DNA of 64,000 nt from Candidatus Doudnabacteria bacterium (GTDB lineage Bacteria > Patescibacteriota > Doudnabacteria > UBA920). The position numbers and the translations under genes are program-made. How positions within the stretch are numbered: the stretch's first letter is position 1; every line of letters starts with the position of its first letter. Positions 1 through 53,899 of the stretch are shown piece after piece. The stretch lies in assembly GCA_016788665.1 (NCBI GenBank), contig JAEUSF010000002.1, forward strand, positions 73,387 through 137,386, in the 5' to 3' direction. A model generated the notes under the pieces. That model was not told the DNA's origin and did not search any database. It saw only the letters and a program-made list of their open reading frames with translations.

Positions 1-546
1 AGTTTTAAGCAAAAACTACAATACCTATCTTCTGCAAGCTATTTTTTATCTGGTGTTGTGGTTTTACTAAACGCAGCTCTACCAATTTTCGTCCTCTTTA
101 CTGGTATGCGGCCTCTGGAAATGACCACCATGGACTTGCTGGCAATTTTTTTGCCTTACATGGTACTTACCATATATGTACTACAAGTTTCCACTAACTA
201 CTCAGTAAGTTTTCGGGCAATCGCTTTTGCTGTGTCCAGCTTCTGGATACAAGTTAAAGCCTTAAACGCCGTTATTTGTGGACAGAAAAGCAAATTCAGC
301 GTAACTTCCAAAAAAAAGCTGGAAGGAAACTTCCTTTCCGTAATCATCCCTCATCTGACTTATGTTTGCTTAGCCATCTGGTCAATTTACACAGGCATAA
401 GCCGTGAAGGATGGTCTGCTTCGGTAATGAGTAATGTAGCGTGGATATTTTTTAACCTAAGCATGTTCGCACCTTTCATAGCAGCAGCACTGCCCAAATT
501 TAACTTCTTTGAAAAACCTATAGAGCAGCTGAAAACCGCTGCCTAA
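1..546 (+). CDS. C-terminal fragment (5' end outside window) of a processive family-2 glycosyltransferase (cellulose synthase/PgaC-like) membrane domain
   Basis: Frame 1 is open from nt 1. Multi-TM C-terminus with an F-x-V-T-x-K motif (KFSVTSKKK) of the kind that follows QxxRW in processive GT2 enzymes. The next gene follows 12 nt downstream. Confidence 0.4.
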   Translation, partial: SFKQKLQYLSSASYFLSGVVVLLNAALPIFVLFTGMRPLEMTTMDLLAIFLPYMVLTIYVLQVSTNYSVSFRAIAFAVSSFWIQVKALNAVICGQKSKFSVTSKKKLEGNFLSVIIPHLTYVCLAIWSIYTGISREGWSASVMSNVAWIFFNLSMFAPFIAAALPKFNFFEKPIEQLKTAA

Positions 547-558
547 ATTTAATACCTT

Positions 559-2079
559 ATGCACGAAAAGTCTAACGCCTCAAAAGCAGCAAGCACGCAA
601 TTATACGACCTGATATTTTTAAGCCTCCTGATGATTTTAGCTACCGCAATTTCGGCTTACTTTCTCCTACACCAAAGCATACGCCTGGACGAGTCACAAA
701 GTCTCTGGCAAAGCAGTCGCTCCTTAAAAGGGCTTATAAAAACCATCTCCCAAGATGTACACATGCCTTTATATTCGGTACTCCTACATTTATGGCAGCG
801 CTTAGTAGGTAACTCAATAGAAACAGCTAGAATACCCTCGTTATTTTTCTTTCTGCTTTCTATACCTGCTTTATATTCATTAGGCAAGCAAGCCTTCCAA
901 AAAAATATCGCTCGCTTTGCCTGCTTACTTTTTTCACTATCCCCCTTTATAAGCTGGTACGGAAACGAAACAAGAATGTACAGCCTTCTTACCTTGCTGA
1001 CCATTTTAAACCAGATCAGTTTCTTAAAACTAATAAGCAGCCTACAAAATAACCAGAACCATAGAATACTTTGGGCTTATTTTAGTCTGACCACCATCTT
1101 AGGAATATACACGCATTATTTTTTTTGGCTGGTTTTAACAACTCAATTTTTTTATCTTCTACTGACACACAAAAATTTATTAAAAAAATACTTTAATACT
1201 TTTATACTGATGCTAGGAATAATTTTATGCTCATTTGTCCCCTGGGTTTTACAAGTATTAAAAGTTGGCTTCTTTTCCAACACCACACCTCTCATAAATC
1301 TTCCAACTTATCTAAATCTTTTTAATAGTTTTACTCAATTTATTTTTGGCTTTCAAGCAGAAAAAATAAATACAATCATACTGTCTTTATGGCCAATAAC
1401 AGTATTAATGCTGTTCTTTTACCTGCAAAAAAATAACCGTCTAGACAAAAACGCTTTATATTTTTTACTAACCGCTTTTTTACCTCCCTTACTTATTTTT
1501 CTTATCAGCATAACAATTCGCCCCATTTTTGTTACCAGATACTTTATCTTCACCGTGCCCAGTTTGTTTTTATTTCTTAGCTGGCTTATATATGCCTACA
1601 GTAAAACTGTCTCCTATTTGCTCAAAACAACATTTGTATCAGCCATGATTTGCACGCTCTACTTACAAAATGTTTTACCCAACGCTCCCATTAAAGAAAA
1701 CTATCGTGCAGCCGCCTCCTACTTATCCTCCCAGTCTTCAAACCAAGATCTAATTGCAATTTCCGCCCCCTTCACCATATACCCCATAGAGTACTACTAC
1801 CAAGGTCCGGCGAAACTCGTGACAATCCCTTCCTGGAACCGATACGAAATAGGTCCGGTGCCTGAATTCTCGTTGGAAAATTTAAACTCGGAAAGCAAAA
1901 ATTTTGAGAAAGTTTACCAAAAAGTCTGGCTTGTGCTTTCGTACGACCAAGGTGAGGAAGCAGAAATAAAAAAATATTTTGATGAAAAATATCATAAAGT
2001 CGATGAACTCGTAATTTCAAACGGCCTCCGTTTATATGCCTACAAGCTCAGATACGACCCCCCAGTTTCCATACAATAA
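559..2079 (+). CDS. Integral membrane glycosyltransferase, GT39/GT83 (PMT/ArnT-like) family
   Basis: 506 aa with about 11 predicted TM helices. A DE-containing first extracytoplasmic loop (RLDESQS) and a soluble C-terminal domain give ArnT/PMT-like topology. Confidence 0.5.
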   Translation: MHEKSNASKAASTQLYDLIFLSLLMILATAISAYFLLHQSIRLDESQSLWQSSRSLKGLIKTISQDVHMPLYSVLLHLWQRLVGNSIETARIPSLFFFLLSIPALYSLGKQAFQKNIARFACLLFSLSPFISWYGNETRMYSLLTLLTILNQISFLKLISSLQNNQNHRILWAYFSLTTILGIYTHYFFWLVLTTQFFYLLLTHKNLLKKYFNTFILMLGIILCSFVPWVLQVLKVGFFSNTTPLINLPTYLNLFNSFTQFIFGFQAEKINTIILSLWPITVLMLFFYLQKNNRLDKNALYFLLTAFLPPLLIFLISITIRPIFVTRYFIFTVPSLFLFLSWLIYAYSKTVSYLLKTTFVSAMICTLYLQNVLPNAPIKENYRAAASYLSSQSSNQDLIAISAPFTIYPIEYYYQGPAKLVTIPSWNRYEIGPVPEFSLENLNSESKNFEKVYQKVWLVLSYDQGEEAEIKKYFDEKYHKVDELVISNGLRLYAYKLRYDPPVSIQ

Positions 2080-2087
2080 AGACGCGG

Positions 2088-3425
2088 TTATTTTGACAAT
2101 TTTGCCAACCCTAATGCATATTCAGGCCAAAATACTCCCGGCCCTGGCCCACCGTTACAACTCCCATCACTTTCTCCGGGAGGCTTTATCCAAAGATATG
2201 CATCTATACGCTCCTTACCAGTATTTAATGTCGGAACATTTCCAAGTGCCCTGCCGGAAGGATTACACCATTCGGAACCCAAAGCACCAAGGCCGTTTCT
2301 ACCAGTATCAATTACAAAATGCTTTCCTCCCACATAACTAGAAATTTTTTGTCCATATTCTGCATTTAAGCCAGTTTCAATAAAATTTGAAACATTCAAG
2401 CTAAATCCGTCGGCAGACCCAATACCCGATCGCTTTAGTCTGTCCGCCATTTCACTCGCACTCACCCAATTTGGATGCCCCGCATCCAAATACACATTTG
2501 TTCCATATTTTGTTTTTAAAATTTCAACTGCTTTCTTTAAAATTTCATACCGGGTATTTTTCAGCTGAGCATCTAAACAATCCGAAAGCGCTAAAGCATC
2601 GGGCTCTAAAATTATAATCGATTTTCCGTTTAAACCACTTGAAAAATCTGTTACCCATTTTAAGTATTTTTCCGCACTAGAACTACCCCCTGCGGAAAAC
2701 CCACCACAGTCACGAATAGGTATATTGTAAATAACAAGTACCGGAATTTTATTTTCAGTCTTGGCAGCAGTAACGATTTTTTCAACGTCTGCCTTTATAT
2801 TTTTATTCCACTCCCCAAACCATACGGCGGTTGGCTGTTTTAACTTTTCCATATATTTTACATCTTGCCCCCTCTGAACTTTCCAACTACTCATAACCTC
2901 ATCTAACATAATGCGCTTGGGTTCATATAAGCCCGAATCACCAGTTCGCGCACTTACCAAACCAACGGCTGGGGAAATAGACACAAGTGCAGAGCTATTT
3001 TGATTTTTCATCTGCTGTAAACTTAAAGAACTTTCTGCCTCCCCTATTTTCTTACCTTCGTAATCATAAGCTATAAAATTAATCCTGTAGGGTCCCAAGC
3101 CTTTCCAATTCCAACCACTAACATCTACAATCGCTTCTTTATGAGGATAGTCATGATAGCTATTATACATTTGGTTTAACTGGCCTCCATCAACCTGCCA
3201 AAACATATGATAAGTTTCTACAACGCGCCCTTGAACAACAGCCTTAAAAGGCTGCTGACCACTAACCTGCGCCATACGAACTGGCCACCAAATCTCAAGA
3301 GACTGCCAATCTGCTTCGACTTCAAAATTACGAAGGCCTCCCAAAACACTACCACTTACTACTAATACAACGAGTATTTTCACTCCTAAGCCGCACCTAA
3401 AAACATAACGTAAAATATTTATCAT
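2088..3425 (-). CDS. Secreted glycoside hydrolase family 6 (endoglucanase/cellobiohydrolase-like) with an N-terminal extra domain
   Basis: Signal peptide or TM anchor at the N-terminus. GH6 signatures are present: IYNIPIRDCGG (catalytic Asp region), IIILEPDALA (EPDSL-like), DAGHPNWV and WIKPPGESDG near the C-terminus. Confidence 0.7.
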   Translation of the reverse strand: MINILRYVFRCGLGVKILVVLVVSGSVLGGLRNFEVEADWQSLEIWWPVRMAQVSGQQPFKAVVQGRVVETYHMFWQVDGGQLNQMYNSYHDYPHKEAIVDVSGWNWKGLGPYRINFIAYDYEGKKIGEAESSLSLQQMKNQNSSALVSISPAVGLVSARTGDSGLYEPKRIMLDEVMSSWKVQRGQDVKYMEKLKQPTAVWFGEWNKNIKADVEKIVTAAKTENKIPVLVIYNIPIRDCGGFSAGGSSSAEKYLKWVTDFSSGLNGKSIIILEPDALALSDCLDAQLKNTRYEILKKAVEILKTKYGTNVYLDAGHPNWVSASEMADRLKRSGIGSADGFSLNVSNFIETGLNAEYGQKISSYVGGKHFVIDTGRNGLGALGSEWCNPSGRALGNVPTLNTGKERIDAYLWIKPPGESDGSCNGGPGPGVFWPEYALGLAKLSK

Positions 3426-3688: not shown

Positions 3689-4063
3689 ATGAAAAATATT
3701 CTGTACCATTTATTATTTTTAGTATTTATATCGCTCATAAGCGGGTTTGTTTTACTTGGTCAGGCAGGGCAACTAGAACTTAACCAGGCGCTCGCAGTAA
3801 GCGGGGGTTTGGTACTCTATGCTTTAGCAATGGTTTTTGTCGGAGAAACCAAAGAAACAGACCAGCGCCAAAGTAACTTTAAAAATGTTTCTGCTAAAAC
3901 AGGGCTCACTGCAGCAATAGCAGTCTTATGCTTAGGACTTATGTATCAAATGCTTTTTACCAACACAATTGACTGGTGGCTTATAGCAAGCTTGGTAGCT
4001 ATAAATTTAACAAAGCTTATAACGCTAATTTTTTTAAACACCAACTCTAAGAGCCAGGTTTAA
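3689..4063 (+). CDS. Small membrane protein, unknown function
   Basis: 124 aa with 3-4 hydrophobic helices. Extended -10 element TGGTAAAAT about 25 nt upstream. Confidence 0.3.
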   Translation: MKNILYHLLFLVFISLISGFVLLGQAGQLELNQALAVSGGLVLYALAMVFVGETKETDQRQSNFKNVSAKTGLTAAIAVLCLGLMYQMLFTNTIDWWLIASLVAINLTKLITLIFLNTNSKSQV

Positions 4064-5417
4064 TTACCGTTAAAGCATTTCCACCCTCCAAAACCACAAA
4101 GAATTTTTCATCTTCACAATCAAAATCAACAGCCTTGGAATGTAAATCCAAGGCTGTTTTAAAATTTAAAACTAACCCATTTTTCGCCCAAACTTGGAAT
4201 TCCTTATCTTGTTCGTTAGTCGCTAAAAATATCCACCCAGACCTTTCAAATATTCCATTTACACTTGTATTTATATCCTGGCTAAAATCAGACAGTAAAG
4301 GCATAAAATTCAAATTGTTAAAAAAGTACAGCTGTTCGTATGCCCCGGCTACCAGCCCTGTCCTGCCGAAATACAGCTTGTCTCCTGCCAAATACAAAGC
4401 ATTGCCGTGTAATATACCGCTTCCATTGGGAGAAAAATTCGAAACTTCAACAATATTCGCCGGGTCCGAAACATTTAGAACCCAAACTTGCTTAACAGAA
4501 GGCGTGGCCACGTAGGCATAATTTCCGCTAACTTTTATGCTATTTGCAGTAGTTCCAAGCTCAAAAGACCCTTCTGCCCTTGGTGCACTAGGGTCTGTAA
4601 CATCTATAATGTAAAATTCTCGACTCTGCGATATTTCAGTGCCCAAGTAAATTCTTAAATTAGAATAATATAAACTCCTACCCGACGCAGCGCTTCCCGT
4701 AACATAGCTATAAACTAAAAAGGGCTCAGAGGGGTTTGAAATATTTATTATTTGCAGCTGGCTAACTGTGCTCAAATTTACCACATACGCCAAATCACCC
4801 ACCACCTTCACCCCACCCAAGCCCGGACCCGTATTTATAGAAGCAACCATGTGCGGATTTTCGGGCACAGAAATATCTACCACAAAAAAATCAGCGGACT
4901 GCAAAGTAGAAGAGTCGGCAGTTATATACGCAAACTTACCTTTTACATCTATGCCCGTAGCTTTTTCTCCCGTACCTAGAAATATTTGCCCGGGCAAAAC
5001 CGTTGGACTAGTCCAATTTCCCTTGAGGCTCAACCCGCAAGCATCACCTTCCCTAAAAGCGTCTTTGTGTATGTACACAAAAAACATTTCTGTCACACCT
5101 TGAGGCCAGAACACCTGACTTACAACTTTTCGCGACCAATTATTTATATACTGGGCCGAAACATTAACCCGAAACACTTCTTTAATTATAGTTTTGTTTA
5201 TAACAGCATTAAATTCGTTTTCAATTTCTGCTTTAGCAGCCTCCAATTCCGCCTGAGCTAATATAACCGCCTGCATATGAAGCTCTGAACGAAGCGCTAA
5301 AGACTGGTTTAAAAAAACCAAAGAAAAAACCGAAGCTGAAACTCCGGCAAGTAAAAATAACCCAACTATAGCTTCCAAGGATGCAAACCCTATTTTTCTT
5401 ACAACAGGATTCGCCAT
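4047..5417 (-). CDS. Type IV pilin-like protein: prepilin N-terminus fused to an LVIVD-repeat (beta-propeller-like) domain
   Basis: N-terminus KIGFASLEAIVGLFLLAG is a class III signal (G/F cleavage site with E at +5). The body carries repeated hydrophobic-x-V-hydrophobic-N/D-hydrophobic-S/T-D/N-P-S/A motifs, for example AYVVNLS...ISNPSEP, FYIIDVTDPSAP and VWVLNVSDPANI. Confidence 0.5.
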   Translation of the reverse strand: MANPVVRKIGFASLEAIVGLFLLAGVSASVFSLVFLNQSLALRSELHMQAVILAQAELEAAKAEIENEFNAVINKTIIKEVFRVNVSAQYINNWSRKVVSQVFWPQGVTEMFFVYIHKDAFREGDACGLSLKGNWTSPTVLPGQIFLGTGEKATGIDVKGKFAYITADSSTLQSADFFVVDISVPENPHMVASINTGPGLGGVKVVGDLAYVVNLSTVSQLQIINISNPSEPFLVYSYVTGSAASGRSLYYSNLRIYLGTEISQSREFYIIDVTDPSAPRAEGSFELGTTANSIKVSGNYAYVATPSVKQVWVLNVSDPANIVEVSNFSPNGSGILHGNALYLAGDKLYFGRTGLVAGAYEQLYFFNNLNFMPLLSDFSQDINTSVNGIFERSGWIFLATNEQDKEFQVWAKNGLVLNFKTALDLHSKAVDFDCEDEKFFVVLEGGNALTVIKPGS

Positions 5418-5421
5418 AATT

Positions 5422-6159
5422 CTATTCTCCTATTATCTCAGCTTTCACCAAATACCTTTTTAAAGCGGTTCCTATGGGGTAAGAAGTTTGTAAGCTCAAA
5501 ATTTTTCGACCTTCCGTATTTTGTGACAATACGGTTACATCGTCTGAATCAACAACACGCGTCTCATAAACTTTATACACGTACTCATATCCTTGCCTGT
5601 CAGTTATATTTATATAGTCCCCAATTTTAATCTCAGGCAACCTAGCAAACACACTCTTGAAATTTCCTTTTTTATACAAAAAATCCGACGAGTGCCCAAA
5701 AATGTAAACATTTCCAGCCAGACCCGCTTCTGCTGTCCCCATATAATGAACAACTCCGTTTTCCAAATTTTCCTGTAAGATTTTTTCTTCAGTCGAAGTT
5801 GCGTAAACTATAGGAGCTTGTATATTTAGCGTTGGTATTGCCAATAAATCAGGCTGTCCTTTTGGCCTAATGTTTTTAATGGGTAAATTACTTTCGTCGT
5901 AAGTCAAAAACACCTTAGGCCAAATAAGCGCCTTTATTTTTTCAGCAAAGTAACTTAAATTTAAAACCACAAACCCTAAAAGAACCGTGGAAAAAAATAT
6001 TCCATAAGTCTTTTTCCAATTTCGAGGATTTGTTTTTTCAAACCACTTTTTTCTAACTTCCTGTTCCGACACAACAGAAACTTTCACACGGCTTCTCGGC
6101 AAACTTTTTACTTTTTTATTTGTTTTTTTTTCGCTCTGCTTCATACTAGTAAAAAACAC
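5422..6159 (-). CDS. Sortase-family transpeptidase homolog (Ser at the catalytic Cys position)
   Basis: N-terminal TM anchor and a sortase-fold pattern: VYIFGHSS (His motif), GDYINITDRQGYEYVYKV, and a TLxTC-like strand ILSLQTSYP followed by Arg (KRYLV). The Cys codon position reads tct (Ser) on the minus strand at 5482-5484. Confidence 0.6.
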   Translation of the reverse strand: MFFTSMKQSEKKTNKKVKSLPRSRVKVSVVSEQEVRKKWFEKTNPRNWKKTYGIFFSTVLLGFVVLNLSYFAEKIKALIWPKVFLTYDESNLPIKNIRPKGQPDLLAIPTLNIQAPIVYATSTEEKILQENLENGVVHYMGTAEAGLAGNVYIFGHSSDFLYKKGNFKSVFARLPEIKIGDYINITDRQGYEYVYKVYETRVVDSDDVTVLSQNTEGRKILSLQTSYPIGTALKRYLVKAEIIGE

Positions 6160-6189: not shown

Positions 6190-7437
6190 TTAGTCGTTGA
6201 ATTTTCTTCCAAACTTTCTGGCAGTTACAAACGAACCGGCCAAAACACCTAAATAGGCTAAAGCGGAAACAGGTCCCGTAACTGGCAAAGAGGTTGCCGC
6301 ACCTTTTACTTCGCCCACAGGCATGGGAACAGGGAGGGAATTTAGGTTTGCTGGCATACTAGTGCTTACGCCCGCAACCTGACCTGAGCTAGAACCACCA
6401 GAACCACCCGAAGGCGGAGTTGGCACTCCACTACCTCCAGAAGAAGGGGCAGGGCCACCGCCGCTTCCACCACCCGAACCGCCGCCGCCACTACCGCCGC
6501 CGGAAGGAGGAGTCAGACTGAAGTGCGCATTAGCTACTAAATTACCGGTTATAACAAAAGTACAGATAGGATTATTGCTGCCTATGCATGGACCGGAAGT
6601 CCAGGTGTCAGCAAAAGTTGAACCCGAGTCAGGAGTTGCGGTTAAAGTAACCTCTGTACCAGAAACATAAGTTTGAGAACAATCCTCGCCGCAGTTTATG
6701 CCTTCATCTGAACTATTAACAGTACCGGTACCGTCACCATTTTTAGTAACAGTTAAAGTATATTCCGGATTTTCCAAGTCATCTACAGTTACAGTACAAG
6801 TTTTTTCCTCACCGTTGGAAACTGTGGAATTACAGTCAGCAGAATATGAGTAAGCATAGCCTCCGTCTGAAACCAAAGTCACACCATAAGCACCAGAGTT
6901 TATATTGCTAGTCACCCCTGCTTCGGAACCGACAAAAGTTGTTAAAACTGGAGAGGTAGCGGTCAAATTTACAGTAAAATCTGGAGCTGCTTTAGTGCCA
7001 CTATTGTCATTGGTCACATTAACCACCACTTTAACTTTTCCAGGCTTTGAAGTGTTTGTAATAGTACAGGTAACGTCGTCACCAGAAGCCAAAGTTCCGC
7101 TGCAACCGCTATAACTTGCTTGGTATGCCGGCTCTTCGGTTTCGGTAATGTTAAAGCTACCTTCAATAGGGGTTAAAACTGTACCGGTTTCTTCACCAGG
7201 AAAGGTTTGCAAAAATATAGGCACGCCTGGCAAAGGAGGAATAACTACTGCGGTAATACTAAAGTTACCCGCAGTTTTACTGCCACCATTGTCATTTATA
7301 ACGTGCTTAATAACGGTAATCGTACCGTTTCCCAGAAGAGGAGCGTCGTCGGCTTTTACATGGCTAAAGTAAGCAATTTGAGAAATAATTGCTACCGAAA
7401 CAAACGTCTTGTATAAAAAAGATTTATATAAATTCAT
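6190..7437 (-). CDS. LPXTG-anchored surface protein with repeated Cna-B/prealbumin-like domains and a Gly/Ser-rich stalk
   Basis: Signal peptide at the N-terminus. Repeated T-C-T-(I/V)-T modules and a (GGS)n linker are present. The C-terminus LPVTG plus hydrophobic segment plus RKFGRKF is a classic sortase sorting signal. Confidence 0.7.
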   Translation of the reverse strand: MNLYKSFLYKTFVSVAIISQIAYFSHVKADDAPLLGNGTITVIKHVINDNGGSKTAGNFSITAVVIPPLPGVPIFLQTFPGEETGTVLTPIEGSFNITETEEPAYQASYSGCSGTLASGDDVTCTITNTSKPGKVKVVVNVTNDNSGTKAAPDFTVNLTATSPVLTTFVGSEAGVTSNINSGAYGVTLVSDGGYAYSYSADCNSTVSNGEEKTCTVTVDDLENPEYTLTVTKNGDGTGTVNSSDEGINCGEDCSQTYVSGTEVTLTATPDSGSTFADTWTSGPCIGSNNPICTFVITGNLVANAHFSLTPPSGGGSGGGGSGGGSGGGPAPSSGGSGVPTPPSGGSGGSSSGQVAGVSTSMPANLNSLPVPMPVGEVKGAATSLPVTGPVSALAYLGVLAGSFVTARKFGRKFND

Positions 7438-7500
7438 ATTGTTTATGCAAATAATTTTTTAAGTTTTTTATTTTCCCAATTATAACATATATTTAACATC

Positions 7501-7529
7501 TTGACAAGACCCCTTAAAATAGGTATAAT
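7501..7529 (+). promoter_or_regulatory. Perfect sigma70 consensus promoter TTGACA-17-TATAAT, followed by AGGAGG RBS at 7549-7554
   Basis: TTGACA at 7501-7506, a 17-nt spacer and TATAAT at 7524-7529. AGGAGG lies 8 nt before the ATG at 7563. Confidence 0.6.
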
Positions 7530-7562
7530 TTACAACACTATCCTAGCTAGGAGGATCCTCGA

Positions 7563-8033
7563 ATGAGGAAACTTGTTCTCTGTTTGTTTCTCACGGTCGC
7601 TGCAAACGCAGCTACCGTAAACATCTACCCCACGCTCGACTGCACCGTCGGAGGCACTTCGGCAGCCACAACAGGGCTGTGTGCAAATCCCAACGGTCCG
7701 ACCACAGTTGGGTTTGTTGTTGTAACCAACGACATGCTCAACCCCAGCGACCAGAACGACTGGGTCCAGGTCCTGGAGTTTCCGAATGCCGGTGGCGGCG
7801 TTGCCACCAACTTTCGACTCTACTCCGATCCGTTGACGTTTCCGAGCTTCGGCTCGGCGTCAACTACGGTGCCGTTTGCTACCCTATTTTCTGTATACAA
7901 CCCCGCGCAGGGGTTTGTGTACAACATCTACAACCCGCCTACCAACGGGGGCGGTAATGTTCCCGAGTCCGGCACCATGCTTATGGTTGCCGGAGGACTC
8001 GCAGGAATTGTTGCAGTCCGCCGAAAGGGCTGA
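7563..8033 (+). CDS. GC-rich secreted protein with a PEP-CTERM-like C-terminal sorting signal (VPESG-TM-RRKG)
   Basis: Signal peptide MRKLVLCLFLTVAANAA. C-terminus ...GNVPESGTMLMVAGGLAGIVAVRRKG. The ORF is about 58% GC against an AT-rich background. Confidence 0.55.
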   Translation: MRKLVLCLFLTVAANAATVNIYPTLDCTVGGTSAATTGLCANPNGPTTVGFVVVTNDMLNPSDQNDWVQVLEFPNAGGGVATNFRLYSDPLTFPSFGSASTTVPFATLFSVYNPAQGFVYNIYNPPTNGGGNVPESGTMLMVAGGLAGIVAVRRKG

Positions 8034-8046
8034 CGAAACAACAACC

Positions 8047-8090
8047 AAAAGGCCGACGAACCTACCAGTTCGCCGGCCTATTTTTTTATT
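8047..8090. terminator. Bidirectional intrinsic terminator between converging genes
   Basis: An A-run, an 11-bp GC-rich stem (GGCCGACGAAC / GTTCGCCGGCC with one mismatch) and a T7 run. Confidence 0.6.
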
Positions 8091-8099
8091 ATTTTTAAA

Positions 8100-8642
8100 C
8101 TATCTAGTTATACAAATAGGTCCTGTGCCAGCCAAAGCTGGTTCTACTGTCATTGCGCATACCGTAACCCTGCCACTTGTGTCTCTATACACAGAATAAC
8201 CGGTATCATAATCATCGTCCGTCGCCCACGATGCGGTTGTCGGAGTAGTGGTGCTCGGGTCAAATGGCATAGAAGTTATATAAGTAGGAACCAAACATTC
8301 AGCAATGTCGTAATACGACTGATTGGTTTTTTCACCCATACGTACTGCCGTTACCTCACTCACAGCAGAACTTGGTATGTCGGTACAGCCACTGCCTGGA
8401 AAAACACCTTTATTGTCTGCCACCCGCTGACCAATAGCGTTTAAAATTGCGTTAACATTACTGGTCCTCTGGGTGTTTCGGCTTTGAGCAAACTGCCTGG
8501 CAGGATTAATGGCAATTAAAACAATAACAGCCAAGACAGCTATCATGCCCATAACCACCAAAATTTCTATAAGCGTAAAACCTTTGTTTAACAAAGTGTA
8601 ATTTTTATTTTGCATAAATAAAATTAAATTATTAAATAGCAA
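8100..8642 (-). CDS. pilA: Type IV major pilin (PilA-like); probable true start at the Met 9 codons downstream (about 8615)
   Basis: MQNKNYTLLNKGFTLIEILVVMGMIAVLAVIV is a canonical prepilin leader (G|FTLIE) with a hydrophobic alpha1 helix. Cys pair in the C-terminal region. Confidence 0.75.
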   Translation of the reverse strand: MLFNNLILFMQNKNYTLLNKGFTLIEILVVMGMIAVLAVIVLIAINPARQFAQSRNTQRTSNVNAILNAIGQRVADNKGVFPGSGCTDIPSSAVSEVTAVRMGEKTNQSYYDIAECLVPTYITSMPFDPSTTTPTTASWATDDDYDTGYSVYRDTSGRVTVCAMTVEPALAGTGPICITR

Positions 8643-8684
8643 AAATTTATTTATGACGTGTCTAAAAAATACTGCATAAATTTT

Positions 8685-18980: not shown

Positions 18981-19510
18981 AGATATCGCTGATTAATCGC
19001 TGATAGTTACGCAGATAGACCGCTGATTTTTCTGCCCTACTTCAGCAATTGTTGTAATTCAGCTCAACTTTAGTATTTAACAAAAGCTAGTAGCCATTCT
19101 ACCACGAAAGTCAATACAGGTTCAAGAGTTAGGGCAAAAACTTCATGAAAATAAAAAAACCGCGCTTTTTTAAAACACGGCATGAACCTTAGGCTTTGAG
19201 GGAAAAAATTACGGCGACTTGCCGCTGATTTGTTCCCCACCAGCAAAAAGCTTTAACTTCCACCTCCCGGTAGTTCCTCCGCGCCAACTCGGCGCAAAGG
19301 GACGGAAGTATTTCAGGCACTTCGGCCTGATATGAAAAGCTAAGCTCGAACAGCTCGAGGCGGTCCCACGGGGTCCCTTCTACCCAACCTTCTACCCACC
19401 TCACGACGCAACGAGGAAGCCGGTTTTTCCTTTCAACAAACTCCTCTTTAGTCATGCACAAAAGTTAGCAAATTATAGACACCAAGTCAACATAAAAGTA
19501 TAATTAATTC

Positions 19511-29716: not shown

Positions 29717-30022
29717 TTACCGACGACGCTCCCTCACCATTCTGTGGCGAATACTCCGAAAGCGATTGCGGGCGGCAAAGAGTTGTCCGACCGTTGTGAC
29801 TACGGTAAAGCACAACTGTCCGGTTACGAAGTTAATACCATAGCAGCCGCCCTGCAGGACTTCGACCCGGGTCGCTTTTTGTGCCAGACGATCAATAACC
29901 CGCTCGTCGGGTAAATCGTTAGGCACCTCGCTCATAAGCGCCGACACCCTCCTCAAGTCCCCCATAGCGACCGAGTCCAGATCCTTCTGTGTGGACCCCA
30001 AACACAATGTCTTGTGTATCAC
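29717..30022 (-). CDS. GC-rich hypothetical protein, Arg-rich C-terminus; start overlaps the stop of the upstream gene (ATGA)
   Basis: 101 aa, about 55% GC. No recognisable motif. Translationally coupled to 30019..30306. Confidence 0.4.
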   Translation of the reverse strand: MIHKTLCLGSTQKDLDSVAMGDLRRVSALMSEVPNDLPDERVIDRLAQKATRVEVLQGGCYGINFVTGQLCFTVVTTVGQLFAARNRFRSIRHRMVRERRR

Positions 30023-30342
30023 CCAAGCCTCCTTAAGTTGTAGCCCATAACACGAACTTCCAACTCGACCATACCACGCTTGCTGACCCGAACGTCAACT
30101 TCGCCTAAGGGAATATTCAAGCGGTTACTGGACGAACCACTCAGGGTCAGCGCCCCGCTCCTCAAGTCCTGTTGAAACGCATGGACCAAATCCATGCGCT
30201 CCTCCGCAGACAAGTCATCAACCTCACGCCTAGGTCGCGTCTTTTTCTTCCGTTGCACACAGCTCTTAGAGAGCACGACTTCCTGTTCGAAGCCAAAGAT
30301 CTGCATGATCCCTCCAAGGAACATGGTATAAAACAAAAACAT
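30019..30342 (-). CDS. GC-rich hypothetical basic protein (probable start 30306, MQIFGFEQE..., after GGAGGG RBS)
   Basis: About 95 aa. Own promoter TTGACA-17-TAAAAT (complement of 30341-30369). The preceding gene ends with an intrinsic terminator. Confidence 0.4.
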   Translation of the reverse strand: MFLFYTMFLGGIMQIFGFEQEVVLSKSCVQRKKKTRPRREVDDLSAEERMDLVHAFQQDLRSGALTLSGSSSNRLNIPLGEVDVRVSKRGMVELEVRVMGYNLRRLG

Positions 30343-30427: not shown

Positions 30428-30799
30428 CTAGTTTAAAGTGGCGTACCGAAAGCTGTATAAGGTGTCGACTACCACCACAGTCCTTTCGTCAACCCTGATC
30501 TTCACACAAATACCATCCGAATTACGACCCGGGCGCTCCTGAACCATCTGCGTTCTAAGAGGACGAAACATCCAATTGTTCTGGGCGGCGGACAACATCC
30601 ACCGGTACGCTTCCTCATCAGTCCGCGCCAGAGCCAAGGCAGCCTGCGTGCGCATAGCCTTTAACCACTCTTTAAAATCGGGGAGCTCTTTGGCAGCCCT
30701 CCCAACATCCAACTTTTCCAACTCCGCCGTCGTCATCAACCCTCCTCTAAGGAAATAAATATCAAAGCAAATACTACTCTTTTGGCAGAACAAGGTCAA
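30428..30799 (-). CDS. GC-rich hypothetical protein (probable start 30736, MTTAELEKLD..., after AGGAGGG RBS)
   Basis: About 102 aa. Promoter TTGACC-17-TAGTAT (complement of 30773-30801). Terminator hairpin AAGCGGTTAAAATTGCCGCTT plus T-run downstream. Confidence 0.4.
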   Translation of the reverse strand: MTLFCQKSSICFDIYFLRGGLMTTAELEKLDVGRAAKELPDFKEWLKAMRTQAALALARTDEEAYRWMLSAAQNNWMFRPLRTQMVQERPGRNSDGICVKIRVDERTVVVVDTLYSFRYATLN

Positions 30800-32167: not shown

Positions 32168-32722
32168 CTAATACGGCACAACCGCGAACATGCAGCTGGG
32201 CCGAAATTTCTCGTAGACGCTTTTAAGTCGAAGCTTCTTCAAGCCCTCGTTCCCGCTCTCCTCGGTGGTCTCGGTGGTATACCCGTCCAGGTACGGATAA
32301 TACACTCCGTGGTTTTTGATAACTATCTTGTCTAGTGCCGCGACCGAACCAGATGGGGGTGCATGTCCGGACCGAGCCAGCGCCAACAACTCGTAGACTG
32401 TCGCCGGCCTGTACCGAACCTTTTCGAACTTTTCCAGCAAAGTCTCTGCGGGAAGCTCTAATCCTAGCCTCACCACCACAATCTTTACTTGGTAAGACTT
32501 AGGCGGCGGTGAGGAGAAAAGAACACCCGGAAAAGTCAAAAACCTATTATACTCGTTCAATCCCACCTCGTTCACCTGCTCCAAGAGTGGGCGGGCGAAG
32601 ACCTGAACCTCGGTCTCCAAAATAAGCCCAGCCGACTCTGCGGCATATGGCTTTTCGTACTTGCCGCAGGAAGCCAAAAAAATCAACATCAATACGCCCA
32701 ACATCTGCAAAAACATTGTCAC
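32168..32722 (-). CDS. GC-rich putative lipoprotein, unknown function
   Basis: Signal peptide with lipobox LASC. 184 aa, about 55% GC. -35 TTGACT (complement of 32778-32783) and AAGGAG RBS. Bidirectional terminator at 32117-32160. Confidence 0.45.
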   Translation of the reverse strand: MTMFLQMLGVLMLIFLASCGKYEKPYAAESAGLILETEVQVFARPLLEQVNEVGLNEYNRFLTFPGVLFSSPPPKSYQVKIVVVRLGLELPAETLLEKFEKVRYRPATVYELLALARSGHAPPSGSVAALDKIVIKNHGVYYPYLDGYTTETTEESGNEGLKKLRLKSVYEKFRPSCMFAVVPY

Positions 32723-34092: not shown

Positions 34093-34335
34093 ATGAGACC
34101 TAATTACAACAATAACAACACTCAACCCCAGGTCAAAAAACAGTGCTACTTTTGTTCCAACAAAATGACCACCGTTGACTACAAGGACACCCAGACCCTG
34201 CGCCGGTTTATGACCCCACATGCCAAAATCATGTCCCATAACCGCACAGGCACCTGCCCTAAACACCAGCGCATGGTAACCTTGGCTTTAAAGCGAGCCA
34301 GACATATGGCCCTATTGCCATTTGTTTCCGCATAA
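34093..34335 (+). CDS. rpsR: 30S ribosomal protein S18
   Basis: CYFCSNK...DYKD..LRRFM...I......GTC.KHQR.V..A.KRAR is the S18 signature. Confidence 0.9.
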   Translation: MRPNYNNNNTQPQVKKQCYFCSNKMTTVDYKDTQTLRRFMTPHAKIMSHNRTGTCPKHQRMVTLALKRARHMALLPFVSA

Positions 34336-35963: not shown

Positions 35964-38042
35964 TTAATTCAGCCTAGAATCACTCCAGGACATTGGAGCT
36001 AAAATTGGTTTTTGAAAATCGTAAATATTTGCCGGAACAACCAAGCTGGAAGAACCCCTGTTGTTCAAAAATATTTCCCAAGACGGTACCGGCACCAAGC
36101 CCTGCTCATGAACAAAATATATTGTACTACCACTCTGCACCCAACTTCCCCACGGGTGTGAAGTATTTAAGTTGTTTATAATATAACCCGTACTAGGAAT
36201 ATTGTTATAGCCCACATTCAATACATTAGAGAATTTAAACCCAAACCCTGTAAAAATATGTGCCGAGGCAAAACCACTCTTTTGACCTCTATAAACAATA
36301 TATACTGTACCATTTTCAGAAATAAGCTGACCATTTGGATAAGTAGAAGAACCTAATACTCCACCATTTCCGCTTATTGTAAAGCTTGCTGTGGCGTTCC
36401 TGCCATAATTATCGCTCACCCTAACCTGAAAACTCGAGGACTGCGCATTTTGTGCAATGCCGGAAATAAATCCGCTTTGAGACAAAGACAACCCAACAGG
36501 CAACTGACCACTAACTACATAAAAATTATATGGTGCCGTACCGCCGTAAGCTTGCATCTGATAGCTATAGTACTGCCCCAAAGTTATAACAGGCAAAGTT
36601 GTATTGGAAAAGTTTAAAGTACCAGTATTGCCAGATCCAGAAACATTAACCATAACGGTTCCGCAAGCATAAGGACTATTTTGACACACTATTATAGCTG
36701 TATTTCCCTGCGTATTTCCGTAAACATACAAATTGCCGGCCGACAAGGATACCGATGCTACATAAGCGCTGCTATTAGATGATATATAGTAACTACCGTT
36801 GCCATAAATAGAAATATTTGCACTTTGCCCGGACGAAAGAGTTATATTGTTTTGGCTAAATGTTAAATTCTGTCCCCAACCCCCTCCGCTCACAGTTAAG
36901 TTAAGAGTTCCGCAAGTTGAGACGTTAGATGACTGGCATACTACCAGACTAGTAGAGCCCTGATTGTATGCCGTAACAGTAAGTTGATTGCCAGTTATAC
37001 TAACCGCCGCAATATATGAATTACTTCCACTGGAAATATAGTAACTTCCTGTGTAATTCTGAGAACCATAAATATAAACTGTAGTGCTCTGCCCGGCATT
37101 CATATTTAAACTACTTGGACTGAACCAAATATTACCGGAGTTAGAAGCGTTCACACTTACAAGCAAAGTTGCGCATGCATTGTTGTTATATTGGCAAACT
37201 ACCACATTTGCGCTGCCATTTCCTACTCCTCTTAAACTTAAAACATTCCCTGAAACCGTGGCCGAAACTACGTTATAATTGGAGTTTGAGGAAATATAGA
37301 ATGCCCCGCTATTTTGGTTATTGCTGTAAATGTTTATAGTGGAATTCTGATCCTGATTCAAATTTACTGTACTTTGACTAAACCACAAATTCCCATTTCC
37401 TTGCCCCGCATTTACCACAACATATATTGTATTACAAGAACCAGAAGTGTTATGACAAACATTTATAGTAGAACTACCGCTTTGACTGCCATACAAATTT
37501 AAAATTGATCCGGATACTGAAGCAGTAACAACCGAAGGATTACTGTTAGAAGAAATGTAATAAGAGGTGTTGTACCCATAGCCACTGCTACTTATAGAAA
37601 CCGCCAAACTTTGACCCACATTTAAAGTAGGATTTTGAGGACTAAACCATAAATTGCCCGAATTTCCGCAACCATAAAGACAACTGCCGACGCCTACAGA
37701 CACAGTATCAGAAGACTGGCTATTTACAGTCACATAAAACTGTTCCATACCCGAACCCAAATAAGTCGTAATATTCAAGCTGCCGTTATAGTCCGTCTGC
37801 CCTATTGGGTCAACAACAGTTGACCATAAGTTACTATTTTGAGCCTTAGCATACAACACAACCCTAGAATTAGAGTCACCATTACTAACAAAAACCTTAT
37901 AACTACCATAACCACCTTCTTGACTAACACTTAAAGAAGGCTTGCGACCGTAATTATAATACTGAGCGGAAGCTTCTGTCATTAAACCCATAGCCAGAAA
38001 ACAAACCGCGACCACACCTCCCAAAATTTTAATTGTTTTCAT
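35964..38042 (-). CDS. Secreted protein with about six tandem Big_2-like (bacterial Ig-like) repeats and a C-terminal domain
   Basis: Signal peptide at the N-terminus. About 80-aa repeats of the form NLWFSxxxxxLNxGQS..V.IxxS...YYISSNSN..VxxxSVSGN.L...G...GS..xxVC. The DNA-level tandem repeats span about 36200-37700. Confidence 0.6.
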   Translation of the reverse strand: MKTIKILGGVVAVCFLAMGLMTEASAQYYNYGRKPSLSVSQEGGYGSYKVFVSNGDSNSRVVLYAKAQNSNLWSTVVDPIGQTDYNGSLNITTYLGSGMEQFYVTVNSQSSDTVSVGVGSCLYGCGNSGNLWFSPQNPTLNVGQSLAVSISSSGYGYNTSYYISSNSNPSVVTASVSGSILNLYGSQSGSSTINVCHNTSGSCNTIYVVVNAGQGNGNLWFSQSTVNLNQDQNSTINIYSNNQNSGAFYISSNSNYNVVSATVSGNVLSLRGVGNGSANVVVCQYNNNACATLLVSVNASNSGNIWFSPSSLNMNAGQSTTVYIYGSQNYTGSYYISSGSNSYIAAVSITGNQLTVTAYNQGSTSLVVCQSSNVSTCGTLNLTVSGGGWGQNLTFSQNNITLSSGQSANISIYGNGSYYISSNSSAYVASVSLSAGNLYVYGNTQGNTAIIVCQNSPYACGTVMVNVSGSGNTGTLNFSNTTLPVITLGQYYSYQMQAYGGTAPYNFYVVSGQLPVGLSLSQSGFISGIAQNAQSSSFQVRVSDNYGRNATASFTISGNGGVLGSSTYPNGQLISENGTVYIVYRGQKSGFASAHIFTGFGFKFSNVLNVGYNNIPSTGYIINNLNTSHPWGSWVQSGSTIYFVHEQGLVPVPSWEIFLNNRGSSSLVVPANIYDFQKPILAPMSWSDSRLN

Positions 38043-41258: not shown

Positions 41259-41287
41259 TTGACAAACCTAAAGACGAAGTTTATAAT
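41259..41287 (+). promoter_or_regulatory. Perfect sigma70 consensus promoter TTGACA-17-TATAAT
   Basis: TTGACA at 41259-41264, a 17-nt spacer and TATAAT at 41282-41287. Followed by an 83-nt structured 5' UTR and an AAGGA RBS. Confidence 0.55.
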
Positions 41288-41376
41288 CACAGGTCCCCTG
41301 CTTGTTTGTGGGGGAAACAGAACATTAACAAACGCCTCACACTCTGAGGCAATAAGGAGGGCGGAAAGGAAATCCT

Positions 41377-41646
41377 ATGTCCTTTTTGTTCCTGATGGTC
41401 GTGTTTGCCATGGCCTCTCTTGCACATGCCGCCGGCGCCACTATGCGCCTGAGCAGTTTCTTGAGAAAGCAAAGCCTAAAAAAACAAACACTCCCAAAAG
41501 CAGTTACGGCCCTTATGGCCGCCGCGCAGCTTTCAGAGCTAGCAAGCCTTATAGAACACGCTTCGTTCGTGCATTTTGTTGGAGCAGCGATGGTTCTGGT
41601 AGTCTTGTTAGCTGTTAAGTCAGGAACCGAAGAACATGGGTTGTAG
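41377..41646 (+). CDS. GC-rich small (89 aa) Ala/Leu-rich protein with a signal peptide and a C-terminal hydrophobic anchor
   Basis: N-terminal MSFLFLMVVFAMASLAHAAGA and C-terminal FVGAAMVLVVLLAVKSGTEEHGL. Flanked by the consensus promoter and the 41711-41752 terminator. Confidence 0.4.
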   Translation: MSFLFLMVVFAMASLAHAAGATMRLSSFLRKQSLKKQTLPKAVTALMAAAQLSELASLIEHASFVHFVGAAMVLVVLLAVKSGTEEHGL

Positions 41647-41710
41647 GCAAAACCGCCTCCCCAAAAACCCAAGGGTTTCCTGATACCATGTCACGCGAGT
41701 GACAGAATCT

Positions 41711-41752
41711 AAAATCCCCGAGAGCTTACGCTTTTCGGGGATTTTCTATTTT
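41711..41752 (+). terminator. Intrinsic terminator
   Basis: AAAATCCCCGA / TCGGGGATTTT 11-bp stem followed by a T-rich tract. Confidence 0.6.
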
Positions 41753-51386: not shown

Positions 51387-51965
51387 CTACCGCCCAACCA
51401 ACTCCCGGTTTTCGGGAACCGTCGCATGCGGCGGCGTGACCACAGGAAGACGCGGTCCAGCCTGTGCGCTAAAACGCGTGCCTACACCACACATCCAAAC
51501 CATAAGACGCGCCAGCACAGACGCCCGCTGCGCCACCTGCACCGCCGGCGGCATGCTCAGTTCCACCCTTTCGCTCGCACCGGCGAGCGACAAAACACGT
51601 ACGCACTGGTTCTCGTTAAGGCGCTGCAGAAGCAGCTCCCGTCCGTTGTCAAACCGAACCCCGTCGCGGTGAATGTAGGCGTCGACCCCCAACTGAGTGA
51701 AAGTCACCAGCTCAGTCTCCCTGACAGCAAATTCTTTCCGAAGCCGCACGGGGATATCCTCCAACATCAACTGCGCACCGGGTGGAATGCACACAGCGCA
51801 CAACATATGGGCACTGTGGTTATTGCCCTGCTCAACCACATCGCGGAATGCAGGGTCACCGGACGAGACCATCCCCATTGACCCGCCCGGAAAGCGGACC
51901 GTTACCAGCGTCTCGCCTTCATTAGCAAGGCGATTTTTGTGTGCGTGCAAGCTATAGTCGCACAT
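51387..51965 (-). CDS. GC-rich hypothetical protein (N-terminus MCDYSLHAHKNRLA...)
   Basis: 192 aa, about 60% GC. Promoter TTGACC-17-TAGACT (complement of 52022-52050) and AAAAGAGGA RBS. No assignable domain. Confidence 0.45.
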   Translation of the reverse strand: MCDYSLHAHKNRLANEGETLVTVRFPGGSMGMVSSGDPAFRDVVEQGNNHSAHMLCAVCIPPGAQLMLEDIPVRLRKEFAVRETELVTFTQLGVDAYIHRDGVRFDNGRELLLQRLNENQCVRVLSLAGASERVELSMPPAVQVAQRASVLARLMVWMCGVGTRFSAQAGPRLPVVTPPHATVPENRELVGR

Positions 51966-52972: not shown

Positions 52973-53899
52973 TTGATAAAACAGTCAGTTAAGTATAGAA
53001 TTATATCCTGTAAGTTTTCAATCCCAGAGGGAGGACCGATGAACTTTTCCACATACCTTGAGGTACTGTTGTCCGCCAAAGAAGCGGCGGCAAAAATCCC
53101 CTTGGGGGTCTACGACCCCATTGTCTGGCCTGAGCTAAGACCAGACGCGCCGACAGCAATGCTGTTGTCCGCGCATCCAGACGACGAATGGCTGTCCTTT
53201 ATGCCGCTGGGTTTGCGGCTACGGCGAGAAGGCTACAACGTTGTTGTGGTCGCTGTTACCTTAGGGCGGCCCGAACAGCACGCGCGACGCCTTAGCGAAC
53301 TAACAGCTGCCTGCCGCTACGGCGGCATGGAACTGTGCGTTCCGGGACCCGAAGGCAAAGGCCTACGGGACCAAATCAGAAACGAAAATGGGGAAACATT
53401 TTCCGGCGCTGTAGAAGAGGTGCTGAAACTAACCAACCGCTACATGCCCAAAGTGTTCATAACACACCACGCGGAAGACGGACACCGGGACCACAAAAGC
53501 TGCAATCGTTTGGCCAAAATTGCGACTGCCTGCAGCAAACAGCACACATTCCTCGTCGAAACGGAATACTGGCAAGACATTGGCGAACCCAACTGCCAAC
53601 TCGAAGTAGCATACCTAGACGTAGTCCGCGTTATGGAGGGTGTCAGTTTCCACAAGGGGGAACTGGAAAGGAACCCTTACCACTTAACCTACCCTCTACT
53701 CGGTATGCTGAATGCCCAGTACGTAGAACGCGTTGTGGGGTTTGGCAACCCCGCGGCGAAATTTCAGTTCTCGGTAATACTGAAGCTGACGGTGTTTAAA
53801 ATGGGCCGCCAGTACGACTACAAACACCCTAGCCAACTCAGCACGGACCAGTCAGTGTCCATGCTCTTTCCGGAAAAACCAACCACAACGTCAGTTTAA
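52973..53899 (+). CDS. GC-rich PIG-L/LmbE-family N-acetylglucosaminyl deacetylase (probable start 53039 after GAGGGAGG RBS)
   Basis: LLSAHPDDE motif and DGHRDH (HxDH) metal-binding motif. Promoter TTGATA-17-TAGAAT at 52973-53001. About 55% GC. Confidence 0.7.
   Translation: MIKQSVKYRIISCKFSIPEGGPMNFSTYLEVLLSAKEAAAKIPLGVYDPIVWPELRPDAPTAMLLSAHPDDEWLSFMPLGLRLRREGYNVVVVAVTLGRPEQHARRLSELTAACRYGGMELCVPGPEGKGLRDQIRNENGETFSGAVEEVLKLTNRYMPKVFITHHAEDGHRDHKSCNRLAKIATACSKQHTFLVETEYWQDIGEPNCQLEVAYLDVVRVMEGVSFHKGELERNPYHLTYPLLGMLNAQYVERVVGFGNPAAKFQFSVILKLTVFKMGRQYDYKHPSQLSTDQSVSMLFPEKPTTTSV

Follow-up and report, generated by a model that had tools for sequence, protein, structure and literature searches.

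A PEP-CTERM family protein with an altered sorting signature beside a sortase locus in a Candidatus Doudnabacteria genome

Introduction

Which enzyme, if any, processes the C-terminal sorting signal of a PEP-CTERM-like protein encoded close to a sortase gene in a member of Patescibacteria? The question arises from a gene at positions 7563-8033 (+ strand) in a 64-kb stretch of contig JAEUSF010000002.1 (hereafter the window; GC content 0.40 overall), part of a metagenome-assembled genome of Candidatus Doudnabacteria (Patescibacteria/candidate phyla radiation, CPR), and was raised in an earlier reading made without database searches (the sequence-only reading). It is a legitimate question. PEP-CTERM systems are found in lineages that have a periplasm as well as an outer membrane, where sortases are generally absent, and exosortase and PEP-CTERM show strict co-occurrence across genomes (Haft 2023 preprint). 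The searchable literature contained no link between exosortase or PEP-CTERM and Patescibacteria, the single co-mention being an entry in a reference list. A 100%-identical NCBI protein, encoded on a 151-kb contig, is already labelled 'MAG: PEP-CTERM sorting domain-containing protein [Candidatus Doudnabacteria bacterium]'; the host is unexpected and the motif degenerate, and no new mechanism is demonstrated. This label, the CPR host, the probable horizontal origin of the gene and a second PEP-CTERM-like gene nearby all go beyond the sequence-only reading. Our preferred answer, to which we give a probability of about one half, is that no enzyme processes the tag, which would be a plain C-terminal membrane anchor and a relic of the exosortase signal of the donor of the gene.

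A PEP-CTERM-type tail with an altered signature residue

The 156-aa product of 7563-8033 ends in VPESG, a hydrophobic helix (TMLMVAGGLAGIVAV) and RRKG directly followed by the stop codon (positions 7959-8030, + strand), so that the three-part layout of the Haft 2023 preprint, a motif abutting a transmembrane helix and then a basic cluster, is present at the extreme C-terminus. This VPESG-TMLMVAGGLAGIVAV-RRKG order had been recognized in the sequence-only reading, and residues 138-155 form a helix in the AlphaFold2 (AF2) model. The scan with TIGR02595 suggested in that reading gave a match above the cut-off (18.4 bits against 16), with residues 133-155 on positions 1-23 of the 24 model positions. 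Weighing against PEP-CTERM identity, the Pfam model PF07589 was marginally missed (20.0 bits; gathering threshold, 20.7). The diagnostic third residue of the Pro-Glu-Pro signature is Ser (P-E-S), and a family-specific C-terminal hidden Markov model gave the protein only 6.7 bits. Six NCBIfam families came up at E <= 10, and neither VPDSG-CTERM (TIGR03778), the other model suggested for scanning, nor any LPXTG-anchor family was one of them. At the other end of the protein, residues 1-16 (MRKLVLCLFLTVAANA, positions 7563-7610, + strand) are a predicted Sec signal peptide, as had also been proposed: by inspection, MRKLVLCLFLTVAANA|ATV has the n/h/c layout with an AxA cleavage site, and residues 2-16 are helical in the AF2 model.

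Relatives of the protein are few. A phmmer search against 1.84 billion representatives generated only 8 matches (E-values of 5.8e-09 to 1e-05 for homologs P0005-P0009), and a profile search generated 39, in which the window protein (P0001) appeared at 1.7e-49, being itself part of the query alignment. The family, rare and itself unnamed, comprises about 30 small secreted proteins, of which almost all are 155-250 aa long and come unnamed from metagenomes. In these proteins a signal peptide is followed by a beta-rich domain that contains Cys and conserved blocks, and the tag stands at the C-terminus. The conserved blocks, namely the Cys, G[YF]VV, W-x-D/Q-V-L-x-F, FP[ST][FY] and YNI[FYH], are all present in the Doudnabacteria protein (alignment A4), the invariant or near-invariant columns include C27, G50, W67, F105, P134 and E135, and a signal-peptide-like N-terminus is found at the equivalent position in all members. 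TIGR02595 was matched by 19 of the 28 aligned members. The 26 aligned members that come from other lineages than Doudnabacteria all carry P-E-P, and P-E-S was confined, among the 28 sequences, to the window protein and its ortholog P0002 (see below).

Judged by its full-length homology, the window protein is a member of this rare family of small PEP-CTERM proteins. Since the family carries canonical tags and P-E-S is unique to the Doudnabacteria pair, the tail is homologous to the PEP-CTERM domain, with the signature residue altered in the Doudnabacteria lineage. This homology is stronger evidence for a PEP-CTERM tail than the model scores are. The PEP-CTERM-like signal of the sequence-only reading thus stands in so far as TIGR02595 is passed and the tag aligns column for column with the VPEP and TPEP tags of homologs, and has to be qualified by the narrow miss of PF07589 and by Ser in place of Pro.

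Two known groups come close to the protein in other respects. One consists of the flocculation protein PepA (NF033554) and further small structural proteins with PEP-CTERM tags in Zoogloea (Gao et al. 2018). Like PepA, the window protein is a small, secreted, non-enzymatic PEP-CTERM protein, and a structural or adhesive role at the surface is plausible for it. It scored 8.1 bits against a cut-off of 80 and is not a PepA ortholog, no floc or extracellular polymeric substance phenotype can be inferred for it, and weak matches to the same model were generated by 11 of the 28 family members. The string V-P-[D/E]-S-G makes the motif nearly the same as that of VPDSG-CTERM (TIGR03778). The two differ in that the TIGR03778 model was not returned and VPESG is a lineage-specific change inside a canonical PEP family.

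Expression signals

Upstream of the gene lies a sigma-70-type promoter that agrees with the consensus at 12 of 12 positions (7501-7529, + strand), with the -35 hexamer TTGACA at 7501-7506, a 17-nt spacer and the -10 hexamer TATAAT at 7524-7529, and the ribosome-binding site AGGAGG (7549-7554, + strand) is located 8 nt 5' of the ATG. A hairpin with a 13-bp stem at 8050-8079 (-18 kcal/mol; z = -4.9 relative to shuffles) is flanked by a T-run on the + strand and by TTTTGGTTGTT on the - strand. As T-runs are present on both strands, this intrinsic terminator would be able to serve both the PEP-CTERM-like gene and the convergent pilin gene. The perfect promoter, the AGGAGG site and the strong bidirectional terminator of the sequence-only reading were all found. 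From these signals, the gene is probably strongly transcribed and translated.

In the 64 kb, 12/12 promoter matches number two, including the one described here. When one mismatch is allowed the count rises to 8, where 0.44 would be expected by shuffling, and no shuffle attained 8; this excess indicates that consensus promoters are a genuine feature of the Doudnabacteria genome. A promoter scan also detected a divergent 11/12 promoter (TTGTCA, 17-nt spacer, TATAAT with a TG extension; 7479-7507, - strand) directed toward a gene for an LPVTG surface protein. The two promoters, for the LPVTG gene (-) and the PEP-CTERM-like gene (+), overlap back to back within 7479-7529, and both -35 hexamers lie inside a common palindrome, TCTTGACAAGA (7499-7509).

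Conservation in an independent assembly and a second tagged gene

The ortholog P0002, 79% identical and with the same neighbours, was found at locus L001 of the independent Logan assembly SRR12901019. Both promoter hexamers and the ribosome-binding site are unchanged at L001, as is the terminator stem, with one substitution in the loop. The dN/dS ratio (nonsynonymous to synonymous divergence) between the window gene and P0002 is 0.14. Against the overall identity of 79%, the stretch VPESGTMLMVAGGLAG, the first 16 residues of the C-terminal domain, is identical in P0002 at 16 of 16 residues and has only 4 synonymous changes.

A second GC-rich gene with a PEP-CTERM-like end lies at 12497-13117 (- strand) and adjoins the upstream end of the type IV pilus operon, opposite to the end at which 7563-8033 is located. 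It has the locus tag JNN11_01510. Its product of 206 aa (GC content at third codon positions, GC3, 0.61) carries a signal peptide and ends in TPEPATFFLVGAMLVAAGLAKAKGGVV, which scored 12.6 bits with TIGR02595, below the cut-off. Counting this one, PEP-CTERM-type tagged genes in the 64 kb number two. Its ortholog P0004 is 80% identical and syntenic (L003), with a dN/dS of 0.18, and the canonical TPEP is kept in both lineages. As the site TAGGAGG precedes the ATG at 13117 and the ortholog matches there, the true start is probably this ATG and not the annotated-style start at 13156. An 11/12 consensus promoter (13212-13240, - strand) is kept in L003. Between this promoter and the start lies a terminator-like hairpin, AAAAAACCGTGCAAACGGTTTTTT (about 13193-13170, - strand), in a layout also kept in L003; it may be the terminator of an upstream 101-aa gene or a leader attenuator. 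The two PEP-CTERM-like proteins share weak similarity over 37 residues only, around the first Cys loop (E = 0.013 in a single comparison). Their homology is unproven, and the mature parts are essentially unrelated.

The abrupt GC steps at both ends of 7563-8033 might suggest a GC-rich fragment of another organism mis-joined into an AT-rich contig, that is, an assembly chimera or contamination. Against this, identical junctions are present on either side in the independent, 88%-identical assembly from another sample, and those of the second GC-rich gene recur likewise. No break separates the open reading frame (ORF) from its AT-rich promoter or from the terminator that it has in common with the pilin gene. 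The same locus in an independent assembly and the dN/dS of 0.14 therefore rule out a chimera and show a protein-coding gene under purifying selection; with the junctions of both GC-rich genes recurring, a misassembly is effectively refuted.

Synonymous divergence (dS) between the two lineages is 0.72 and 0.82 for the GC-rich genes (7563-8033 and 12497-13117), about threefold below that of three flanking native genes (in 8100-9083 and 13269-13574), which are saturated at a dS above 2. For a fourth native sequence, a short piece of pilB covering codons 1-51, dS was 0.97. Upstream of the PEP-CTERM-like gene, the intergenic DNA is 91% identical between the lineages, and another intergenic stretch nearby can hardly be aligned. 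The low synonymous divergence could come from selection acting at synonymous positions or from cassettes exchanged between the lineages at a later time.

Foreign composition and origin

The ORF is GC-rich, as had been stated in the sequence-only reading, with a GC content of 0.565 and a GC3 of 0.64 (0.66 in the ortholog) against a window median GC3 of 0.37 (z of about 5). At four-fold degenerate codons, the fractions of C and G are 0.38 and 0.22 in the PEP-CTERM-like gene, 0.36 and 0.27 in the homolog P0005, and 0.21 and 0.17 in the native bulk; four-fold codon usage of the gene matches that of its homologs rather than that of native genes. The homolog contexts examined (L004, L005/L006, L007 from GCA_017883415.1, L008 and L090-L092) are contigs of 45-66% GC, and in 5 of 5 contexts the gene has a GC content near that of the surrounding genome. 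Outer-membrane genes are present on L004 and L008: both have TonB-dependent receptors carrying CarboxypepD_reg, L004 additionally has OEP/TolC and MlaDE, and L008 encodes a TonB protein. This domain mix is common in Acidobacteriota. Another homolog, P0009 (L002, ENA ERZ1758447, a 701-bp contig with the gene at 143-676), has a canonical VPEPSS tag and 32% identity to the window protein; its gene has a GC content of 0.59 and an AT-rich leader with TTGACA and AGGAGG, and this may be another copy, carried by an AT-rich genome that is possibly from CPR.

No family members or PEP-CTERM-like C-termini were found in 80 PilB loci of GTDB genomes (1.24 Mb) or in 80 metagenome pilin loci (0.61 Mb), both mostly from Patescibacteria, and the closest pilus operons examined have no PEP-CTERM-like gene after the pilin gene. 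With 0 such ORFs in 160 pilus loci (1.85 Mb), the idea that PEP-CTERM genes generally accompany the pilus operons of CPR was rejected. Pattern scans with the window protein detected no relatives in GTDB representative genomes or JGI metagenomes. With respect to a mobile-element origin, no relatives were present in IMG/VR or in phage or plasmid collections, neither PEP-CTERM-like gene matched PHROGs or PADLOC, no integrase-like Pfam match was obtained among the ORFs scanned (a subset near the inserts), and no tRNA gene adjoins either insert.

Because the homologs lie on GC-rich contigs, the GC3 and codons of the gene are foreign, and the gene is absent from the mostly patescibacterial pilus loci examined, it was most likely acquired horizontally, before the two sampled Doudnabacteria lineages diverged, as judged from sequence comparison. 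The donor was most likely a bacterium with an outer membrane. Two points count against this origin: the donor taxon is not established, and part of the high GC3 could be due to strong expression, under which C-ending codons would be selected, since rpsR has the same bias at third positions toward C. Taken further, the second point yields a native gene that only looks foreign through its Gly/Ala/Pro/Thr/Val composition and translational selection, with a PEP-like end that is a convergent hydrophobic tail. Native highly expressed genes indeed favour C-ending codons (C fraction at NNY codons of 0.64 against 0.37 in the bulk; GC3 of rpsR, 0.60), and the expression signals of the PEP-CTERM-like gene include a perfect promoter and a strong ribosome-binding site. 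Synonymous divergence of the gene is below that of its neighbours, as codon selection predicts. However, the protein is homologous over its full length to a family whose other members, where examined, are encoded on contigs of 45-66% GC, outer-membrane genes being present on two, and the tags match column by column. G-ending four-fold codons are raised (0.22-0.29), but these are depleted in native highly expressed genes (0.12). The neighbouring LPVTG gene has a GC3 of 0.33 despite a similar amino-acid composition of its product, and the gene is missing from the related, mostly CPR, pilus loci examined. We therefore consider a native origin improbable.

Fate of the tag in a host with a sortase

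The sequence-only reading had found no exosortase in the window and had named a sortase as the only sorting enzyme nearby; both statements agree with our results. Exosortases (EpsH/Xrt) have at least eight transmembrane helices, and none was found among the ORFs with at least four predicted transmembrane segments in the 64 kb. These were assigned to EamA (twice), PMT_2, FtsX, two ABC exporters and a cellulose-synthase-like C-terminus, and the remaining one (3689-4063, 124 aa) is too small and had no exosortase match. The sortase is encoded at 5422-6159 (- strand; PF04203, 84.8 bits; TIGR01076, 50 bits), and the adjacent gene at 6190-7437 (- strand) encodes its probable cognate substrate, a 415-aa protein with SpaA-like and InlB B-repeat domains that ends in LPVTG, a helix and RKFGRK. 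For the PEP-CTERM-like gene, we treat the sortase as context and not as an established processing enzyme.

In the uncleaved state that we favour, the N-terminal signal peptide would direct export by the Sec pathway and be cut after ANA, the Cys-containing, beta-rich domain of about 115 residues would be exposed outside the cell, and the C-terminal helix would stop transfer and serve as the cell-membrane anchor, leaving RRKG in the cytoplasm. Export, topology, the uncleaved tag and a surface function are here read from the predicted features of the protein. We favour an uncleaved anchor because the host has a sortase system, published PEP-CTERM systems come from lineages that have an outer membrane, the signature Pro is lost, and the searchable literature links no exosortase to CPR. 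Several points weigh against it. The exosortase search spanned 64 kb only, and an enzyme may be encoded elsewhere in the genome. A polysaccharide-type cluster (cellulose-synthase-like, PMT_2 and GH6 genes) opens the window, and polysaccharide loci of this kind often house exosortases. Of about 11 ORFs that look foreign, two are of the PEP-CTERM type and unrelated to each other; this exceeds what chance capture would give and hints that the tag itself is useful. The identity of 16 of 16 residues in VPESGTMLMVAGGLAG appears tighter than a generic membrane anchor needs, and the second gene retains its canonical TPEP in both lineages.

These points lead to the main rival explanation, a working exosortase system, in which an enzyme of the exosortase/archaeosortase family encoded outside the window, possibly co-acquired and possibly specific for VPESG, cleaves both tagged proteins and attaches them to a surface component. 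The strict co-occurrence of exosortase and PEP-CTERM (Haft preprint) argues for it, as do the two tagged genes in 64 kb, both conserved and with intact three-part signals, the motif and first half of the helix that are perfectly conserved with synonymous changes only, the polysaccharide-type genes at the start of the window, and the TIGR02595 score above the cut-off. On the other side are the lack of an exosortase among the multi-transmembrane ORFs of the window, a host sortase/LPXTG system typical of cells without an outer membrane, the missing literature link to CPR, the loss of the otherwise invariant third residue of the signature, and the lack of PEP-CTERM-like proteins in the pilus loci (1.85 Mb), most of which belong to other CPR. 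We regard such a system as possible, though less probable than the uncleaved anchor. In comparison with PEP-CTERM/exosortase systems (TIGR02595, PF07589; Haft et al.), the signal peptide, the TIGR02595-positive three-part tag at the extreme C-terminus, the homologs with canonical tags and the small size without an enzymatic domain are shared, whereas P-E-S in place of P-E-P, a CPR host with a sortase, a compositionally foreign gene, no exosortase in 64 kb, and two tagged genes in place of dozens are not.

A more speculative rival is conversion into a sortase signal. After transfer, VPEP(A)(S) would have changed to VPESG, which resembles [LVI]-P-x-[TS]-G, and the neighbouring sortase (5422-6159) would cleave the protein and attach it to the wall. 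The general likeness to LPXTG/sortase anchoring lies in the three-part architecture, the adjacent sortase with a true LPVTG substrate, and the fit of VPESG to a loose [LVI]Px[TS]G; more specifically, the sortase and LPVTG genes are directly upstream and share a divergent promoter region with the PEP-CTERM-like gene, the Pro-to-Ser and Ala-to-Gly changes fall exactly at the positions that create P-x-S-G and are specific to the Doudnabacteria lineage, the local LPVTG signal likewise has almost no spacer before its helix, and VPDSG, the motif of TIGR03778, is described as intermediate between VPEP and LPXTG. VPESG, however, deviates from LPXTG at two positions, and Val at position 1 together with Ser at position 4 is not a documented motif for this sortase. 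None of the models returned was an LPXTG-anchor model, the TPEPA retained in the second gene does not look like a sortase motif, and a search for other sortase substrates that would set the local range of motifs found only the one LPVTG protein. Cleavage by the sortase therefore seems to us very doubtful.

The pair of PEP-CTERM-type genes, both conserved and apparently well expressed in a CPR bacterium that has a sortase, is informative whether the uncleaved anchor or the working exosortase system is correct. With a working system, the locus could be the earliest indication that Patescibacteria possess exosortase-type sorting; with an orphan tag, it could be a natural case of a sorting signal persisting, and mutating, once moved into cells without the enzyme. 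The gene is an oddity and not a new kind of system, and the practical consequence is small, the NCBI label existing already.

GC-rich single-gene units

GC3 of the ORFs in the window is bimodal, with 52 ORFs at 0.25-0.47, 11 at 0.56-0.67, and none between. In addition to the two PEP-CTERM-like genes, the GC-rich group contains rpsR (34093-34335), which is native with a C3-driven bias, and eight further ORFs at 19189-19461, 29717-30022, 30019-30342, 30428-30799, 32168-32722, 51387-51965, 52973-53899 and 59103-59858. Six of these eight have more G- than C-ending codons, 29717-30022 leans likewise, and 52973-53899 is C3-driven. The last is also the only one with a significant family match (PIG-L deacetylase); the eight generated no PADLOC matches and two weak PHROGs matches, to families of unknown function. 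Most of them have their own TTGACx promoter-like site and terminator-like hairpin. The second 12/12 promoter of the window (41259-41287) precedes an ORF missed by the ORF lists (41377-41646). This ORF (GC3 0.52; AGGAGG ribosome-binding site) has an 89-aa product in which a signal peptide is combined with a hydrophobic helix at the C-terminal end, and it ends at a strong terminator (about 41713-41745); Rfam gave no RNA family above chance in 41259-41745.

Autonomous units of promoter, gene and terminator with deviant GC content are known from phages as 'morons'. By analogy, the PEP-CTERM-like gene stands alone, is served by a consensus promoter and a terminator of its own and departs in GC content from the DNA on either side. 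About 10 more compositionally deviant, GC-rich ORFs are present in the window, most of them with promoter-like and terminator-like elements of their own. The PEP-CTERM-like gene differs from morons in its chromosomal setting, which is not a prophage, and in the lack of phage, plasmid, viral or PHROGs matches. A 40%-GC CPR genome can thus hold many single-gene islands of 52-60% GC, which bears on how reduced symbionts gain surface functions and possibly on the identity of their partners. A wider scenario, which we offer as a rather unlikely one, is that a CPR episymbiont captured surface proteins from a GC-rich, outer-membrane neighbour or host and placed them behind consensus promoters at both ends of the pilus operon, the tag being re-purposed without an exosortase, either as a bare anchor or, through the change from VPEP to VPESG, as a substrate of the adjacent sortase. 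The genes would then be part of about 11 GC-rich promoter-gene-terminator units, roughly 1 ORF in 6. The approximately threefold slower synonymous evolution of the two tagged genes suggests ongoing exchange of cassettes between Doudnabacteria lineages or selection for foreign codon usage.

Neighbouring genes

The PEP-CTERM-like gene is a self-contained unit between the sortase/LPVTG module and the type IV pilus operon (8100-12316, - strand), which encodes a pilin, three minor pilins, PilC and PilB and is bracketed by the two GC-rich genes. The nearest relatives of PilB in GTDB genomes are mostly from Patescibacteria, at 61% identity or less. At the start of the window, a polysaccharide-type cluster (1-3425), a few kb from the PEP-CTERM-like gene, consists of a cellulose-synthase-like GT2 gene with a frame open from base 1 to 546, a PMT_2-family glycosyltransferase gene (559-2079) and then a GH6 glycoside hydrolase gene (2088-3425; 201 bits). 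The sortase gene is adjoined by a gene at 4047-5417 for a 456-aa LVIVD-repeat (beta-propeller) protein, the N-terminus of which, with …KIGFASLEAIVGLFLLAG…, resembles a prepilin-type leader. Outside the main pilus operon, 35964-38042 encodes a secreted protein of 692 aa with PF13629 (pilus formation protein N-terminal region) and DUF7076.

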